Positions 8,561-44,823 of a DNA stretch of 64,000 nt are shown here, in pieces. Location of the stretch: the NCBI RefSeq assembly GCF_030013595.1, contig NZ_CP122768.1; one strand, 5' to 3'. The number at the start of each line of letters is the position of its first letter. Position 1 is the stretch's first letter. Made by a program: the position numbers and the translations under genes. Source of the DNA: Escherichia coli (GTDB taxonomy: Bacteria > Pseudomonadota > Gammaproteobacteria > Enterobacterales > Enterobacteriaceae). The notes under the pieces were generated by a model. That model made no database searches. It saw nothing but the letters and a program-made list of their open reading frames with translations, and was not told where the DNA came from.

Positions 8561-8789
8561 TCCTCTGATTTACAAAACACGCTAATTCGTCTTCCATAAA
8601 CCATGACGATTAAGATTTATACATAATGCGCTACATTGAGGAATTCCCTGAATGTGACGCAAATCACTTCAAAGAGTGAGCAACAGTCAGTATCATCATG
8701 TGAGTTAAACCCTCGCCGCCTGACGGTGAGGGTTTTCTTTTGGGTATGTTTATCTGCGACACTCGCAGTACCGACGACATGGAGTAAAA

Positions 8790-12404: not shown

Positions 12405-12775
12405 CTATACTTCCTCCGTGTTTTCGATGAGATGTAAGGTAACCAATTTTTGCCGATTCGGCTAATGCGTTTCCATTATCAAATCGATAAGTTTTACCTT
12501 ACAACCTTCGTAAGACAACTTTGTGAACTTTGCACCGCCAGCGGCGATAAAAAGTAAAATGGCCCCCTTTCCAGGTGACCGTGTAATCTGAACTACCCTT
12601 TGGTATCTTCAGCGCCTGCCTGCAGGCTGAGGTGTTGCCCTTACAAATGCAACAACGACATGGATTACAACACCCTCATAAACAAAGGGCAATCACCTGA
12701 TCTAAGCTCTTACCTATGACAGTGATAGGTTATGCCTTTTACCCGACTTTTGCACTGACTGAAAAGGACAAATTA

Positions 12776-14778: not shown

Positions 14779-15999
14779 ATGTCTATTTATAAAATCCCGC
14801 TTCCACTGAATATTCTGGAAGCTGCAAAAGAACGTATTACCTGGACACTTAACACCCTACCCCGCGTCTGCGTTTCTTTTTCGGGTGGTAAAGATTCCGG
14901 ATTAATGCTGCATCTGACCGCCGAACTTGCCCGACAAATGGGCAAAAAAATTTGTGTTTTATTTATCGACTGGGAAGCTCAGTTCTCTTGCACCATTAAC
15001 TATGTTCAGTCTCTGCGCGAGTTGTACACCGATGTCATCGAAGAGTTTTACTGGATTGCGCTCCCGCTTACAACGCAAAATTCCCTATCACAATACCAAC
15101 CCGAATGGCAGTGCTGGGAACCTGATGTCGAATGGGTACGTCAGCCCCCGCAAGATGCGATAACCGATCCTGACTTTTTCTCCTTTTACCAGCCTGGCAT
15201 GACCTTCGAACAATTTGTGCGTGAGTTTGCCGAATGGTTTTCGCAAAAACGTCCGGCGGCGATGATGATCGGCATCCGTGCGGATGAGTCCTACAACCGT
15301 TTTGTCGCCATCGCCAGTTTAAATAAACAACGTTTTGCCGATGATAAGCCCTGGACTACTGCCGCACCAGGCGGTCATAGCTGGTACATTTACCCCATCT
15401 ACGACTGGAAAGTCGCTGATATCTGGACCTGGTATGCTAGCCATCAACGCCTCTGTAACCCACTGTATAATATAATGTATCAGGCAGGCGTTCCTCTACG
15501 TCATATGCGAATTTGCGAACCTTTTGGTCCGGAACAACGGCAAGGATTATGGCTCTATCACGTTATCGAACCGGATCGCTGGGCTGCTATGTGCGCACGA
15601 GTCAGCGGGGTAAAAAGTGGCGGCATTTACGCCGGACATGACAACCATTTTTATGGTCATCGGAAAATCCTCAAGCCCGAACATTTAGACTGGCAGGAGT
15701 ATGCATTATTGCTACTCAACAGCATGCCGGAGAAAACAGCTGAGCATTATCGCAATAAAATCGCCATTTATTTGCACTGGTATCAGAAAAAAGGCATCGA
15801 GGTTCCACAAACCCAGCAAGGGGACATTGGCGCGAAAGATATCCCCTCCTGGCGGCGAATATGCAAAGTTTTACTCAATAACGATTACTGGTGTCGGGCA
15901 TTATCATTTAGCCCGACCAAAGCGAAGAACTATCAGCGTTATAACGAACGAATAAAAGGAAAACGTCAGGAATGGGGGATACTATGCAACAACGATTAA
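14779..15999 (+). CDS. ybdN: PAPS-reductase-like PP-loop ATP pyrophosphatase family protein (IbrA-like)
   Basis: 406-aa ORF with the PP-loop motif SFSGGKDS near the N-terminus. Confidence 0.8.
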   Translation: MSIYKIPLPLNILEAAKERITWTLNTLPRVCVSFSGGKDSGLMLHLTAELARQMGKKICVLFIDWEAQFSCTINYVQSLRELYTDVIEEFYWIALPLTTQNSLSQYQPEWQCWEPDVEWVRQPPQDAITDPDFFSFYQPGMTFEQFVREFAEWFSQKRPAAMMIGIRADESYNRFVAIASLNKQRFADDKPWTTAAPGGHSWYIYPIYDWKVADIWTWYASHQRLCNPLYNIMYQAGVPLRHMRICEPFGPEQRQGLWLYHVIEPDRWAAMCARVSGVKSGGIYAGHDNHFYGHRKILKPEHLDWQEYALLLLNSMPEKTAEHYRNKIAIYLHWYQKKGIEVPQTQQGDIGAKDIPSWRRICKVLLNNDYWCRALSFSPTKAKNYQRYNERIKGKRQEWGILCNND

Positions 16000-16600
16000 C
16001 GCAGGATTTAACCCAATTTCTCGCCAGCTTGCCGGAAGACGATCGCATCAAAGCGATTAATGAAATCCGCATGGCGATCCATCAGGTTAGCCCCTTTCGA
16101 GAAGAGCCAGTGGATTGCGTTCTGTGGGTTAAAACAGCCAACTTATGCCTAATGATTACAACCCAAACAACGTGGCACCACCCGAAAAAAAACTGCTGAA
16201 AAAATCCATTGAAATAGATGGTTTTACCCAACCCATTGTGGTCACGCATACGGATAAAAATGCCCTGGAAATCGTGGATGGTTTTCACCGCCATGAAATT
16301 GGTAAAGGCTCATCATCGTTAAAATTACGCTTAAAAGGTTATTTGCCGGTGACCTGTCTGGAAGGTACGCGTAATCAACGCATCGCCGCGACTATTCGTC
16401 ATAACCGCGCTCGTGGACGTCACCAAATCACTGCCATGTCAGAAATCGTCCGTGAACTCAGCCAGTTGGGATGGGACGATCATAAAATTGGCAAAGAGCT
16501 GGGAATGGACAGCGACGAAGTGCTACGCCTGAAGCAAATTAACGGCCTGCAAGAGTTGTTTGCCGACCGTCAATATTCCCGCGCCTGGACGGTTAAATAG
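15972..16600 (+). pseudogene. ybdM: ParB/sulfiredoxin-like protein (IbrB-like), apparently frameshifted
   Basis: Two overlapping ORFs in different frames (15972-16199 and 16145-16600) together span 629 nt, one short of the 630 nt expected for the ~209-aa protein; second part carries a DGFHRH ParB-like motif. Confidence 0.6.
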
Positions 16601-17761
16601 CTAAAGCTGGCGCAGGCGTTCAGCTGCTGCCAGCAACGTCGATTCCTTCTTGGCAAAACAGAGACGAATCAGTTTATGTGGGAAGGGATCGGCGCAAAAC
16701 ACCGATAGCGGAATCGCCGCTACGCCGTGCTCCTGCGTCAGCCACTGGCAAAACTCAACGTCATCCAGGGTAGATACGGCGCTGTAATCCACCAGCAAAA
16801 AGTATGTACCTTCGCACGGTAAAATCTCCAGCCGGCTTTCATTTAAGGCATTCACCAGAATATCGCGCTTCTGGCGATAAAAGTCCGGTAACGCAAGATA
16901 ATGCTCAGGTTCTGCACGTAGCATATCGGCAAGCGCCAGCTGTGCCGGGGTATTCACCGAAAAGGTCAGATACTGATGTACCTTGCGAATTTCGGCACTG
17001 ATGGGCGCTGGCGCAACGCAATAACCCACTTTCCAGCCGGTCATATGATAGGTCTTGCCAAACGATGACACCGCCACCGCCCGCTCACGCAGCTGCGGAT
17101 GCGCCTGCACGCTGGCATGGCCCTGTTGTGAAAAGTTGATGTGCTCGTAAACTTCATCGCTAATGACAAAAATCTCGTGCCCGGCAATTGCCTGCCACAA
17201 AGCGGCGAAATCAGCCTGCTGCCAGACAGTTGCACTGGGGTTATGCGGGGTGTTGAGGATCACCAGTCGGGTGCGCTCGCTTAACAATGCGGCAAATTCC
17301 TGCCAGTCCACGCGAAAATGCGGTGGTTGCAGTGCAATACGTTTCACTATTCCCCCCGAAAGCGCGATGGCGGGCGCGTAACTGTCATAGCTGGGATCAA
17401 AGCAGATCACTTCATCACCATTGCGCACCAATGCGGTAATCGCTGCATATAACGCTTCCGTCGCCCCTGCCGTTACGGTGATATCGCTATCGGCATCCGG
17501 TTGATAGCCATACAGACGTTCCGTTTTCTGAGCAATCGCCTCGCGCAAGGCCTGCACGCCAGTCATAGGCGCGTATTGGTTTGCCCCCTGGGCAACGTGG
17601 TACGCCAGCCGCTCCTGCAAATAGCGCGGACCATCAAAATCAGGAAAGCCTTGCGACAGGTTAATCGCCTGGTGTTGCTGCGCCAGCGCGCTCATCTGGG
17701 TGAAAATAGTGGTGCCAAGTTGTGGAAGTTTGCTTTGTGGAATCAGAGGGTTATTTGTCAT
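16601..17761 (-). CDS. ybdL: PLP-dependent methionine aminotransferase
   Basis: 386-aa ORF MTNNPLIPQSKLPQLGTTIF...; class I/II aminotransferase. Confidence 0.85.
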   Translation of the reverse strand: MTNNPLIPQSKLPQLGTTIFTQMSALAQQHQAINLSQGFPDFDGPRYLQERLAYHVAQGANQYAPMTGVQALREAIAQKTERLYGYQPDADSDITVTAGATEALYAAITALVRNGDEVICFDPSYDSYAPAIALSGGIVKRIALQPPHFRVDWQEFAALLSERTRLVILNTPHNPSATVWQQADFAALWQAIAGHEIFVISDEVYEHINFSQQGHASVQAHPQLRERAVAVSSFGKTYHMTGWKVGYCVAPAPISAEIRKVHQYLTFSVNTPAQLALADMLRAEPEHYLALPDFYRQKRDILVNALNESRLEILPCEGTYFLLVDYSAVSTLDDVEFCQWLTQEHGVAAIPLSVFCADPFPHKLIRLCFAKKESTLLAAAERLRQL

Positions 17762-40875: not shown

Positions 40876-40975
40876 TGCCGGATGCGGCGTGAACGCCTTA
40901 TCCGGCCTACAAAAATCTTGCCAATTCAATATATTGCAGGACCACGTAGGCCTGATAAGCGTAGCGCATCAGGCA
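40876..40975. repeat. REP / BIME-like palindromic units between fepA and entD
   Basis: gccggatgcggcgtgaacgccttatccggcctac, then an inverted partner gtaggcctgataagcgtagcgcatcaggc. Confidence 0.7.
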
Positions 40976-41011: not shown

Positions 41012-41632
41012 ATGAAAACTACGCATACCGCCCTCCCCTTTGCCGGAAATACGCTGCATTTTGTTAAGTTCGATCCGGCGAGTTTTCGCGAGCAGGATTT
41101 ACTCTGGCTGCCACACTACGCACAACTGCAACACGCTGGACGTAAACGTAAAACAGAGCATTTAGCTGGACGAATCGCTGCTGTTTATGCCTTGCGGGAA
41201 TATGGCTATAAATATGTGCCCGCTATCGGCGAGCTACGCCAACCTGTGTGGCCTGCGGAGGTATACGGCAGTATTAGCCACTGCGGGACTACGGCATTAG
41301 CCGTGGTATCTCGTCAACCGATTGGCATTGATATCGAAGAGATTTTCTCTGTACAAACCGCAAGAGAATTGACAGACAACATTATTACACCAGCAGAACA
41401 CGAGCGACTCGCAGAATGCGGTTTAACCTTTTCTCTGGCGCTAACACTGGCATTTTCCGCCAAAGAGAGCGCATTTAAGGCAAGCAAGATACAGGCCGCT
41501 CAAGGTTTTCTGGATTATCAGATAATTAGCTGGAATAAACAGCAGATCATCATTCGACTAGAGGATGAGCAGTTTGCTGTGCACTGGCAGATAAAAGAAA
41601 AAATAGTCATAACGCTGTGCCAACACGATTAA
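41012..41632 (+). CDS. entD: Enterobactin synthase phosphopantetheinyl transferase
   Basis: Within ORF 40862-41632; start at MKTTHTALPFAGNTLHF... gives 206 aa. Confidence 0.85.
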   Translation: MKTTHTALPFAGNTLHFVKFDPASFREQDLLWLPHYAQLQHAGRKRKTEHLAGRIAAVYALREYGYKYVPAIGELRQPVWPAEVYGSISHCGTTALAVVSRQPIGIDIEEIFSVQTARELTDNIITPAEHERLAECGLTFSLALTLAFSAKESAFKASKIQAAQGFLDYQIISWNKQQIIIRLEDEQFAVHWQIKEKIVITLCQHD

Positions 41633-41742
41633 TTGACAACATCTGGTACGATTCGCCCGCAGCCATTGCTGACCGCGGGCGAAAGTGTAAAACAGGTGCC
41701 TTACCACCCTGACCTGACAACCGGATATGCGGGGATTACTCC

Positions 41743-43080
41743 CATAAGCGCTAACTTAAGGGTTGTGGTATTACGCCTGATATGATTTAACGTGCCGATG
41801 AATTACTCTCACGATAACTGGTCAGCAATTCTGGCCCATATTGGTAAGCCCGAAGAACTGGATACTTCGGCACGTAATGCCGGGGCTCTAACCCGCCGCC
41901 GCGAAATTCGTGATGCTGCAACTCTGCTACGTCTGGGGCTGGCTTACGGCCCCGGGGGGATGTCATTACGTGAAGTCACTGCATGGGCTCAGCTCCATGA
42001 CGTTGCAACATTATCTGACGTGGCTCTCCTGAAGCGGCTGCGGAATGCCGCCGACTGGTTTGGCATACTTGCCGCACAAACACTTGCTGTACGCGCCGCA
42101 GTTACGGGTTGTACAAGCGGAAAGAGATTGCGTCTTGTCGATGGAACAGCAATCAGTGCGCCCGGGGGCGGCAGCGCTGAATGGCGACTACATATGGGAT
42201 ATGATCCTCATACCTGTCAGTTCACTGATTTTGAGCTAACCGACAGCAGAGACGCTGAACGGCTGGACCGATTTGCGCAAACGGCAGACGAGATACGCAT
42301 TGCTGACCGGGGATTCGGTTCGCGTCCCGAATGTATCCGCTCACTTGCTTTTGGAGAAGCTGATTATATCGTCCGGGTTCACTGGCGAGGATTGCGCTGG
42401 TTAACTGCAGAAGGAATGCGCTTTGACATGATGGGTTTTCTGCGCGGGCTGGATTGCGGTAAGAACGGTGAAACCACTGTAATGATAGGCAATTCAGGTA
42501 ATAAAAAAGCCGGAGCTCCCTTTCCGGCACGTCTCATTGCCGTATCACTTCCTCCCGAAAAAGCATTAATCAGTAAAACCCGACTGCTCAGCGAGAATCG
42601 TCGAAAAGGACGAGTAGTTCAGGCGGAAACGCTGGAAGCAGCGGGCCATGTGCTATTGCTAACATCATTACCGGAAGATGAATATTCAGCAGAGCAAGTG
42701 GCTGATTGTTACCGTCTGCGATGGCAAATTGAACTGGCTTTTAAGCGGCTCAAAAGTTTGCTGCACCTGGATGCTTTGCGTGCAAAGGAACCTGAACTCG
42801 CGAAAGCGTGGATATTTGCTAATCTACTCGCCGCATTTTTAATTGACGACATAATCCAGCCATCGCTGGATTTCCCCCCAGAAGTGCCGGATCCGAAAAG
42901 AAGAACTAACTCGTTGTGGAGAATAACAAAAATGGTCATCTGGAGCTTACAGGTGGCCATTCGTGGGACAGTATCCCTGACAGCCTACAAAACGCAATTG
43001 AAGAACGCGAGGCATCGTCTTAACGAGGCACCGAGGCGTCGCATTCTTCAGATGGTTCAACCCTTAAGTTAGCGCTTATG
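41743..43080 (+). mobile_element. IS186 insertion sequence (IS4 family), complete, 1338 bp
   Basis: 23-bp terminal inverted repeats cataagcgctaacttaagggttg (41743-41765) and caacccttaagttagcgcttatg (43058-43080); identical 10-bp direct repeats ggattactcc at 41733-41742 and 43081-43090. Confidence 0.9.
41960..43072 (+). CDS. insL: IS186 transposase (DDE)
   Basis: ORF 41792-43072; start placed at MSLREVTAWAQL... to give the ~370 aa I recall for InsL; start uncertain. Confidence 0.75.
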   Translation: MSLREVTAWAQLHDVATLSDVALLKRLRNAADWFGILAAQTLAVRAAVTGCTSGKRLRLVDGTAISAPGGGSAEWRLHMGYDPHTCQFTDFELTDSRDAERLDRFAQTADEIRIADRGFGSRPECIRSLAFGEADYIVRVHWRGLRWLTAEGMRFDMMGFLRGLDCGKNGETTVMIGNSGNKKAGAPFPARLIAVSLPPEKALISKTRLLSENRRKGRVVQAETLEAAGHVLLLTSLPEDEYSAEQVADCYRLRWQIELAFKRLKSLLHLDALRAKEPELAKAWIFANLLAAFLIDDIIQPSLDFPPEVPDPKRRTNSLWRITKMVIWSLQVAIRGTVSLTAYKTQLKNARHRLNEAPRRRILQMVQPLS

Positions 43081-43101
43081 GGATTACTCCCCGCACAACG
43101 G

Positions 43102-43254
43102 CTACTTCTTCGGTTCGTAAGCGAGAACAGCCTTAAACTCAATATTACGTTCCTTCACCGTAAACTCACACAGCGAGTCTCCGACCAGAAGCGTAAATCC
43201 CAGTACCGTCAAACACAGCACTATGACTGCCACAAGGGCATATTTCGTCAGCAT
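43102..43254 (-). CDS. hokE: Hok-family small toxic membrane peptide (type I toxin)
   Basis: Minus-strand 50-codon [53 protein letters not shown], typical Hok; stop codon lies 21 bp from the IS186 target duplication. Confidence 0.85.
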
Positions 43255-43680
43255 GTTTATATTGCCTCCATGCGAAGAAGGGACTACCATCCAAATTGTC
43301 TGGTTTGGAGTGGCAGCCCCAGGGTTGATAGAAATATCTCCTGGGGCTTCATCTTTCCAGACCTCAGAGTAAACCTGAAACCGGAAAGCTTCAGGCACCC
43401 GCCGTTATCTTACCCTTCCTCAGCAAAATAGCTGTTTATTTATACAGTGAGTCCTGTTTCGGACTTCTCACTCCTCATTTGATCAACTGAAGCTGAACCC
43501 GTTTTTTTCTGCATGCCTCAATCGTCAAAATTCTTCGCCACCAGCCAGCTCTGCCATAACTTGTCACATTGCAGAAGTAGCCAAACTTCTTCAGTCACAA
43601 TCAGTTCACCATCACCAAAAAAAGAAACATTCCAGAACTTCCGCATCTCGCCCAGTCGCTCCCACTTCTATACTGAATAG

Positions 43681-44823
<1,143 letters not shown>

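Follow-up and report, generated by a model that had tools for sequence, protein, structure and literature searches.

The 64,000-nucleotide stretch of Escherichia coli DNA analyzed here (the window) carries a hokE/sokE type I toxin-antitoxin locus that has been split in its 3' untranslated region by an IS186 element and is probably crippled in its regulation, while the toxin gene, the antitoxin gene and both of their promoters are undamaged. An earlier annotation made from the letters of the sequence alone (the first-pass annotation) had cautioned that chromosomal hok loci are often inactivated. The caution was well placed, as the 3' untranslated region does contain an IS186 copy, a lesion of the class found in hokE and hokC of K-12, but the lesion itself had been missed. 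In K-12, insertion elements are considered to have inactivated hokA, hokC and hokE (PMC12214031), and Pedersen and Gerdes took K-12 hokE and hokC to be inactivated by lesions of the class seen in the window (summarized in PMC12214031). Inactivation is not to be equated with silence, however: K-12 hokE, which bears a similar lesion, is still transcribed, and approximately 40% of its transcripts are edited (PMC12214031).

Toxin gene, leader and antisense RNA

The hokE coding sequence occupies positions 43102..43254 of the minus strand, from an ATG at 43254 to a TAG at 43104-43102, and comprises 50 codons plus the stop; its Shine-Dalgarno sequence, GGAGG, lies at 43269-43265. The 50-codon Hok reading frame of the first-pass annotation is thus present, and the disruption that its authors had allowed for upon re-inspection was not found. 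The product matches the Hok/Gef family in Pfam (PF01848, HOK_GEF) over profile positions 1-42 of 42 with 34 bits against a cutoff of 22, and it is identical to WP_000956465.1, the RefSeq HokE of the IS-free relative L006, whose hokE locus is likewise identical. The gene is flanked by entD and fepA on one side and by ybdK, ybdJ, ybdF and nfsB on the other, and the order entD-hokE-ybdK is common to K-12 and eight other strains; hokE took this position in all E. coli genomes inspected. On sequence grounds, the profile scores and the 100% identity to annotated hokE loci exclude a chance match. Protein family, RNA family, entD/ybdK synteny and identity to annotated hokE/sokE together bear out the naming of the gene as hokE and of the locus as a chromosomal one of the hok/sok type. 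The first-pass annotation gave no strand; all the features it describes lie on the minus strand.

Codon 46 of hokE (43117..43119, minus strand) reads UAC and is followed by a G at 43116, a site at which A-to-I editing by TadA would recode Tyr46 to Cys and so supply the second cysteine of HokE. In K-12, the hokE mRNA is edited by TadA at this codon in approximately 40% of transcripts (PMC12214031), and the window matches the K-12 sequence in this region. A local hairpin around codon 46 received no support, the predicted fold being no better than those of shuffled sequences (z = -0.44).

Upstream of the toxin gene, the Rfam family RF01794 ("sok") matches 43246-43400 on the minus strand from end to end (model positions 1-157; score 83.7 bits, gathering score 59; E = 9e-19). 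This model follows the hok mRNA strand, starting at nucleotide 1 of the transcript and ending at the hok AUG, and thereby marks the region in which leader and sok overlap, not the 60-nt Sok RNA alone. Together with alignment to the leaders of R1, hokB and hokC and with the predicted folds, the match defines a hokE mRNA leader at 43255..43400 (minus strand). The untranslated leader that had been claimed for 43255-43500 is therefore real, but it stops near 43400, where the RF01794 match ends. By homology, we propose that the mRNA begins at approximately 43400 (GGGUGCCUGA...). Its 5' end would be formed by the tac element, GGGUGCCU (43393..43400, minus strand), which pairs with the distal fbi element in the folds described below; further into the leader, also on the minus strand, lie a ucb-like element (nt 53-61; 43348-43340), a GGGG equivalent to SDmok (43320-43317) and a predicted Sok-target hairpin (nt 81-121; 43320-43280).

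The regulatory elements were placed by aligning the window with K-12 hokE, hokC, hokB and R1-type hok/sok. In this alignment, a hexamer stands 6 nt upstream of the mRNA start at every locus, reading TAAGAT in hokE, TATAAT in hokC, TAGGAT in hokB and TATGAT in R1, and its position relative to tac suggests that TAAGAT (43407..43412, minus strand) is the -10 element of the hokE promoter. There is no good -35. The -35 region is overlapped by a LexA (SOS) box at 43430..43449, which reads CACTGTATAAATAAACAGCT on the hok strand (CTGT-N8-ACAG at 43432-43447) and is identical to the K-12 sequence; a pattern search located two such sites in the 64 kb, compared to 0.5 expected. In the literature, hokE is listed among the classical LexA-box genes, with a heterology index of 4.9 (PMC11228462; PMC2826370). 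A consensus sigma-70 scan of 41550-43720 returned no site, but its negative outcome carries no information, as the cutoff of 9/12 also misses the strong Sok promoter of R1 (7/12) and the sokE promoter (8/12).

The antisense promoter that the first-pass annotation expected in the leader region was found by alignment with the R1 Sok promoter. It consists of a -35 hexamer, TTGCCT (43263-43268), a 17-nt spacer and a -10 hexamer, TACCAT (43286-43291), spans 43263..43291 on the plus strand, and aligns hexamer by hexamer with the R1 promoter (TTGCGC-17-TATCCT); it is invariant in 10/10 hokE copies. The -10 ends 6 nt before the annotated 5' end of SokE. The gene itself, of roughly 59-60 nt, lies at 43298..43357 (plus strand) if the ends annotated for K-12 sokE (b4835) hold for the window, to which they were transferred through the alignment. 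As so delimited, SokE is perfectly complementary to leader nt 44-103 and is predicted to form a hairpin rich in GC, preceded by nine unpaired 5' nucleotides and followed by a U-rich tail (-24.9 kcal/mol, z = -2.85). At the level of sequence only, the region thus encodes an antisense Sok RNA that overlaps the leader and is equipped with a promoter and a terminator hairpin. With sokE and its promoter, tac, candidate pairings of the ucb/SD/dcb type and fbi all located, the lack of an antisense promoter or of conserved regulatory elements that might have told against a hok/sok-type locus does not apply.

The first-pass annotation also reported a longer frame extending upstream of the toxin gene on the same strand. 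Such a frame does exist, running in frame with hokE for 98 codons from a GTG at 43398 to 43102 on the minus strand, but it is unconserved. We regard it as extremely improbable that this frame is a real gene, encoding either a Mok-Hok fusion or an N-terminally extended toxin. It is open in the window, and the Mok of R1 and of hokC is indeed an in-frame 19-codon extension of Hok; yet its GTG falls at mRNA +3, leaving no space for a ribosome-binding site, and the Pfam match covers residues 53-94 only. Moreover, K-12 and other alleles carry indels of one and two bases at +62 and +99 that destroy the frame upstream of +99, and it is because the 1-nt indels at these two positions break the frame that the allele comparison marks the 98-codon ORF as a coincidence. 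Furthermore, hokE lacks the canonical mok AUG that R1, hokC and hokB have at the homologous position of the alignment: it reads CUCCAAACCAG there, and the other loci read ...AUAUG... or ...GAAUG.... The sole candidate start for a mokE, an AUG in frame with hokE and 12 codons before its start codon (43288..43290, minus strand), has no clear Shine-Dalgarno sequence; this AUG and the next 12 codons are conserved across alleles with one synonymous change, and the K-12 annotation includes no mokE. Given that the canonical mok AUG is absent from the sequence, the translational coupling of hokE may differ from that of R1.

IS186 in the 3' hairpin

Immediately beyond the toxin gene, the window contains an IS186 element (IS4 family; IS421-like in RefSeq) of 1338 bp at 41743..43080, oriented on the plus strand. 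It is bounded by 23-bp terminal inverted repeats, CATAAGCGCTAACTTAAGGGTTG, at 41743 and 43058, and its transposase ORF (DDE_Tnp_1, 93 bits) lies on the plus strand, convergent with hokE. The element is 99.9% identical to IS186A and IS186B of K-12, from which it is set apart by one apparent indel in a C run at 42873/42874. Both of its ends are flanked by a 10-bp target-site duplication, GGATTACTCC, at 41733..41742 (left copy) and 43081..43090 (right copy). The length of about 1.34 kb, the 23-bp repeats, the DDE transposase, the 10-bp duplication and the target motif are all features that define IS186. The locus had been taken to begin at 43081, which is the first base past the right inverted repeat; this limit leaves outside the locus the fbi element and one half of a hairpin, which lie at 41689-41742.

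IS-free strains L001 and L006 display the empty site, GCGGGGATTACTCCCCGC. On the hok strand, a 3' hairpin, GCGGGG-AGUAAU-CCCCGC, begins 3 nt past the stop codon, and IS186 has been placed in its loop, 21 nt after the hokE stop codon. The insertion site, GCGGGG-ATTACT-CCCCGC, is a perfect GGGG-N6-CCCC target of IS186. This target, GGGG(N6/N7)CCCC, is rare and palindromic, and the element can consequently use it in either orientation (PMC5009759). Since the 3' hairpin of hok happens to be this rare motif, the lesion recurs independently. In the window, the 5' half of the split stem-loop (GCGG-GGAGUAAUCC) remains beside the gene at 43081..43094 (minus strand), including the right duplication copy at 43081-43090, whereas the 3' end of the transcription unit is orphaned on the far side of the element at 41689..41742 (minus strand), where the 3' half of the hairpin (41742-41729), fbi (AGGCACCU, 41701-41694) and a U tract are found. 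The fbi element, identified by its coordinates, the fold and pair counts among paralogs, is separated from hokE by 1348 bp of IS186 and duplication, or roughly 1.35 kb. A consensus scan places the first terminator-like site on the hokE-sense strand about 570 nt inside IS186, a hairpin with a U tract at 42509..42528 (minus strand), which could possibly form the 3' end of a chimeric hokE-IS186 transcript of about 900 nt.

Predicted folding and its probable consequences for regulation

The regulation of hok mRNA has been described by a model built upon the elements tac, fbi, ucb and dcb (PMC9841398), and structure prediction with comparison to plasmid R1, which had been recommended as a check on the locus, recovers its central pairing. 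All structural statements made here are thermodynamic predictions. In the 364-nt mRNA reconstructed without IS186, nt 1-8 (tac) pair with nt 352-359 (fbi) in both the MFE and the centroid folds, and the molecule as a whole folds at -152.1 kcal/mol (z = -8.0), a value equaled by 0/100 shuffles. The same end pairing is predicted for R1-type hok, hokB and hokC, which served as positive controls. Across the four paralogs, 93.5% of tac-fbi pairs are formed in register, compared to 31-52% when the strands are slid, and two positions have changed on both sides of the helix, from U-A to C-G and from C-G to U-A. As a shuffle statistic the covariation is weak with only four paralogs, 65/500 shuffles reaching the observed value, and more can be learned from sliding the register and from counting individual pairs. 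No variation was seen in tac, in fbi, in the promoter of sokE or at the 3' end of the ORF among 10 hokE copies, which elsewhere diverge by as much as 6%.

This closure of the two ends is predicted for IS-free relatives and for the window once IS186 is removed, but it is absent from the window as it stands. In transcripts without fbi, whether processed or chimeric (345, 400 and 901 nt), tac is predicted to pair locally, and the hairpin of nt 81-121 forms, presenting the target of the SokE tail. In the full-length MFE fold, nt 53-61 pair with 78-86. The local partner of tac varies among fbi-less folds, being nt 54-58 in some and nt 25-34 when the RNA ends at nt 335, and the R1 control missed the tac-ucb pairing. 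What these models support is local pairing of tac in the absence of fbi, although the exact partner is not robust. The 3' hairpin is likewise altered, from -25.5 kcal/mol in the ancestral sequence to -18.5 kcal/mol at the chimeric junction, where a different structure involves the end of the IS.

By homology to R1, the ancestral locus would have operated through weak, LexA-repressed transcription yielding a full-length mRNA held closed by tac-fbi, the leader of which would open only as the 3' end was slowly trimmed back to a protective hairpin. The opened mRNA would then be either bound by SokE and cut by RNase III or, when SokE was lacking, translated into a membrane-depolarizing peptide. In the window, by contrast, the toxin transcript would read into IS186, antisense to the transposase gene, and, having neither fbi nor the protective hairpin, its leader would fold from the outset like that of the processed form. 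Because fbi and the hairpin have been lost, such a transcript would be accessible to both SokE and 3' exonucleases as soon as it is made, leaving no latent pool of toxin mRNA to accumulate. It should be added that IS-free chromosomal hok loci (hokA, hokC) showed no post-segregational killing (bioRxiv 10.1101/2025.08.07.668861), and on this account the ancestral hokE locus may also not have worked like R1.

Two other readings of the locus must be weighed against regulatory crippling by IS186. In the first, the insertion would be without practical effect, hokE being an SOS-inducible module in which cleavage of LexA lifts hokE transcription beyond the capacity of SokE, independently of fbi or 3' processing. 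This is unlikely. In its favor, the toxin ORF, its Shine-Dalgarno sequence, its promoter and the LexA box are all intact and identical to those of IS-free relatives, hokE is named among the LexA-box toxin genes, and transcripts without fbi are predicted to be open and translatable. To this may be added that the hokE mRNA of K-12 is present and edited despite IS186 (PMC12214031) and that overexpression of the HokE coding sequence is toxic (bioRxiv 10.1101/2025.08.07.668861). In K-12, however, AZT failed to induce hokE (0.47-fold), whose expression did not depend on lexA (PMC11228462), and fluoroquinolone persistence was unchanged when hokE and five other SOS toxin genes were deleted. Furthermore, toxicity is abolished when the last 3' stem-loop of the processed R1 hok mRNA, the protective one, is destabilized (PMC9841398), and it is this stem-loop that IS186 has split.

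In the second reading, the locus would be a decaying relic, its toxin and antitoxin both unexpressed and free of selection. An IS insertion in hokE, the loss of the gene or the presence of IS150 in its leader in other strains, and the fact that no phenotype has been reported for its deletion might all be cited in its favor. We nonetheless judge it decidedly improbable: neither the hokE ORF nor the promoters carry a disabling mutation, tac and fbi, like the antisense promoter and the end of the toxin ORF, have stayed invariant across alleles up to 6% different elsewhere, an identical HokE is encoded in many genomes, the locus is duplicated in many strains, and the insertion looks recent, its flanks being the same as those of IS-free relatives. 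Crippled regulation of an otherwise undamaged toxin-antitoxin pair thus remains the reading that we prefer.

Known relatives and the spread of the insertion

The hokE/sokE pair, its LexA box, the editing of its mRNA and its interruption by IS186 are all already known from E. coli K-12. The locus of MG1655 (hokE/sokE, b4415/b4835, with IS186B) resembles that of the window in its position between entD and ybdK and in its leader, sokE, tac, fbi and LexA box, and IS186B has entered at the identical target site, again flanked by this 10-bp duplication. The two nevertheless differ in that the transposase gene is convergent with hokE in the window and co-directional with it in K-12, the orientation of the IS being opposite; in that residue 8 of HokE is Val in the window and Ala in K-12; and in the region of the SokE 5' tail and its target, where a 1-nt indel and two substitutions separate them. 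An opposite IS orientation, a different allele of the SokE target and an independent, recent insertion are the only departures of the window from the K-12 case. The hokC/sokC (gef) locus of K-12 carries IS186A in the equivalent 3' hairpin, GGCGGGG-ATCACT-CCCCGCC, likewise a perfect IS186 target, again with a 10-bp duplication and, as in the window, with the transposase convergent with hok; it is, however, a paralog at another locus, approximately 89-91% identical over the matched part and with an in-frame mokC annotated.

With hok/sok of plasmid R1 (parB), the window shares a Hok-family toxin and an antisense Sok whose promoter and hairpin are homologous, as well as tac-fbi end pairing with compensatory changes, candidate pairings of the ucb/SD/dcb type and a GC-rich 3' stem-loop. 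In contrast to R1, hokE is chromosomal, bears a LexA box at its toxin promoter, lacks the canonical mok AUG and does not encode Cys46, having in its place an editable Tyr codon. In the window, moreover, IS186 parts fbi and the 3' stem-loop from the gene, and delayed activation of the R1 type consequently cannot operate. Other toxin loci with LexA boxes resemble hokE in that the box governs the toxin promoter only, the antisense RNA being constitutive (PMC2826370); they belong to unrelated toxin families with different RNA architectures, and they respond robustly to SOS, in contrast to hokE, for which induction is seen only inconsistently (PMC11228462).

An origin of the window from K-12 was considered and rejected. 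The IS is oriented differently, and in 5,426 complete E. coli genomes no full-length match to the junction region exceeded 98.8%. From the duplication onward, 7.9 kb are 100% identical to two pig isolates in which hokE is IS-free and present in a single copy. When the IS and one copy of the duplication are removed, the window equals the IS-free sequence of L006 over the whole hokE unit; over 5.85 kb, the two differ only in an apparent A7/A8 run difference near 43616, outside the mRNA, and in one SNP in fepA. As the flanks match IS-free relatives, the insertion in the window is recent and independent of that in K-12. Among approximately 5420 complete E. coli genomes, locus-specific junction queries of 920 nt detected IS186 at the hokE site in the K-12 orientation in 1282 and in the orientation of the window in 216, in agreement with a separate count of 1,504, such that about 28% of complete genomes are occupied. 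Shorter junction queries of 120 nt, which returned 1056 and 1874 genomes, at odds with that separate count, were discarded because paralogous hok loci bearing IS186 (e.g., hokC) cover at least 80% of the query. The remaining genomes are mostly IS-free at hokE, often with a tandem duplication of the gene, and a few have lost hokE; some other strains carry IS150 in the hokE leader. A HokE protein of identical sequence is encoded in many genomes.

The arrangement of the window, opposite to K-12 in the orientation of its IS, is present and annotated in 216 complete genomes, and its significance beyond correct annotation is small. It is conceivable that the association of hok with IS186 is itself functional, with the LexA-run hokE promoter tying transposase expression to DNA damage and a latent-mRNA killer becoming constitutively Sok-controlled, but we think this improbable. 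If it were true, read-through from hokE would run in sense into IS186 in the K-12 orientation or antisense to the transposase in that of the window, and the coupling could be positive or negative. For annotation, the locus is best marked as IS-interrupted, fbi and one half of the 3' hairpin lying 1.35 kb from the gene. The strain of the window and its near-identical IS-free relatives also constitute a natural isogenic pair with which to probe the 3' end of a chromosomal hok mRNA.

Insertion sequences in hok loci

In K-12, the copy IS186A lies inside the hokC 3' hairpin, GGCGGGG-ATCACT-CCCCGCC, with the duplication GGATCACTCC (L007, the hokC region, K-12 14900-17400). This hairpin is equivalent to that of hokE, and thus two K-12 IS186 copies occupy hok 3' hairpins, which match the rare IS186 target motif. 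Within the 64-kb window, the hokE hairpin is accompanied by no further GGGG-N6/7-CCCC site. Strain 15.03CC presents a different element at the hokE locus: an IS150 copy (86-1455 of the strain's locus, L015) stands in place of the hokE body, leaving the promoter-proximal part alone, from the equivalent of window position ~43320 onward. A second IS family has therefore struck this locus, which recalls the IS150 in K-12 hokA/mokA.

Tandem copies of hokE/sokE in IS-free strains

In many IS-free E. coli, O157:H7 among them, the entire hokE/sokE unit of ~500 bp is tandemly duplicated. The two hokE copies of one such strain lie at 1021-1173 and 1523-1675 (L001), and the duplication is also found in three further loci (L010, L011 and L014). 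Most of the divergence between the two copies falls in the SokE 5'-tail/target region (mRNA +87 to +101), and indels occur at +62 and +99; such differences could lessen cross-talk between the two Sok RNAs.

Antisense frame and homopolymer differences

On the plus strand, a 117-codon ORF (43078-43431), whose ATG start lies within the IS186 right inverted repeat, runs antisense to hokE and its leader and spans both. RefSeq annotates a "hypothetical protein" on this hokE-antisense strand in most genomes, frequently flagged as frameshifted, and the ORF in the window is probably a spurious antisense frame.

The IS186 copy in the window carries a run of six C (42874-42879) where K-12 IS186A, K-12 IS186B and strain CH4796 have seven. 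The transposase changes frame near residue 361 as a result, and its ORF, which ends at 43072, is 424 aa long instead of 370. The difference is either a true frameshift or an assembly error in the homopolymer. Between hokE and ybdK (~43616-43624), the window reads A7 against A8 in strain CH4796 and in the otherwise identical IS-free relatives, which are pig isolates. This is the second homopolymer difference inside 1 kb, and it heightens the suspicion of sequencing error.

LexA-type and RNA matches elsewhere in the window

A second match to the LexA-box pattern CTGT-N8-ACAG, CTGTGGGTTAAAACAG (16122-16137, plus strand), lies immediately upstream of an ORF at 16145-16600, has a GC-rich centre and probably arose by chance. 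Three other Rfam matches exceed their gathering scores: the rnk leader (8636-8744, plus strand, 124.9 bits), STnc70 (12549-12642, minus strand, 44.1 bits) and, within entD, ES036/CssrF (40912-40953, plus strand, 42.2 bits).
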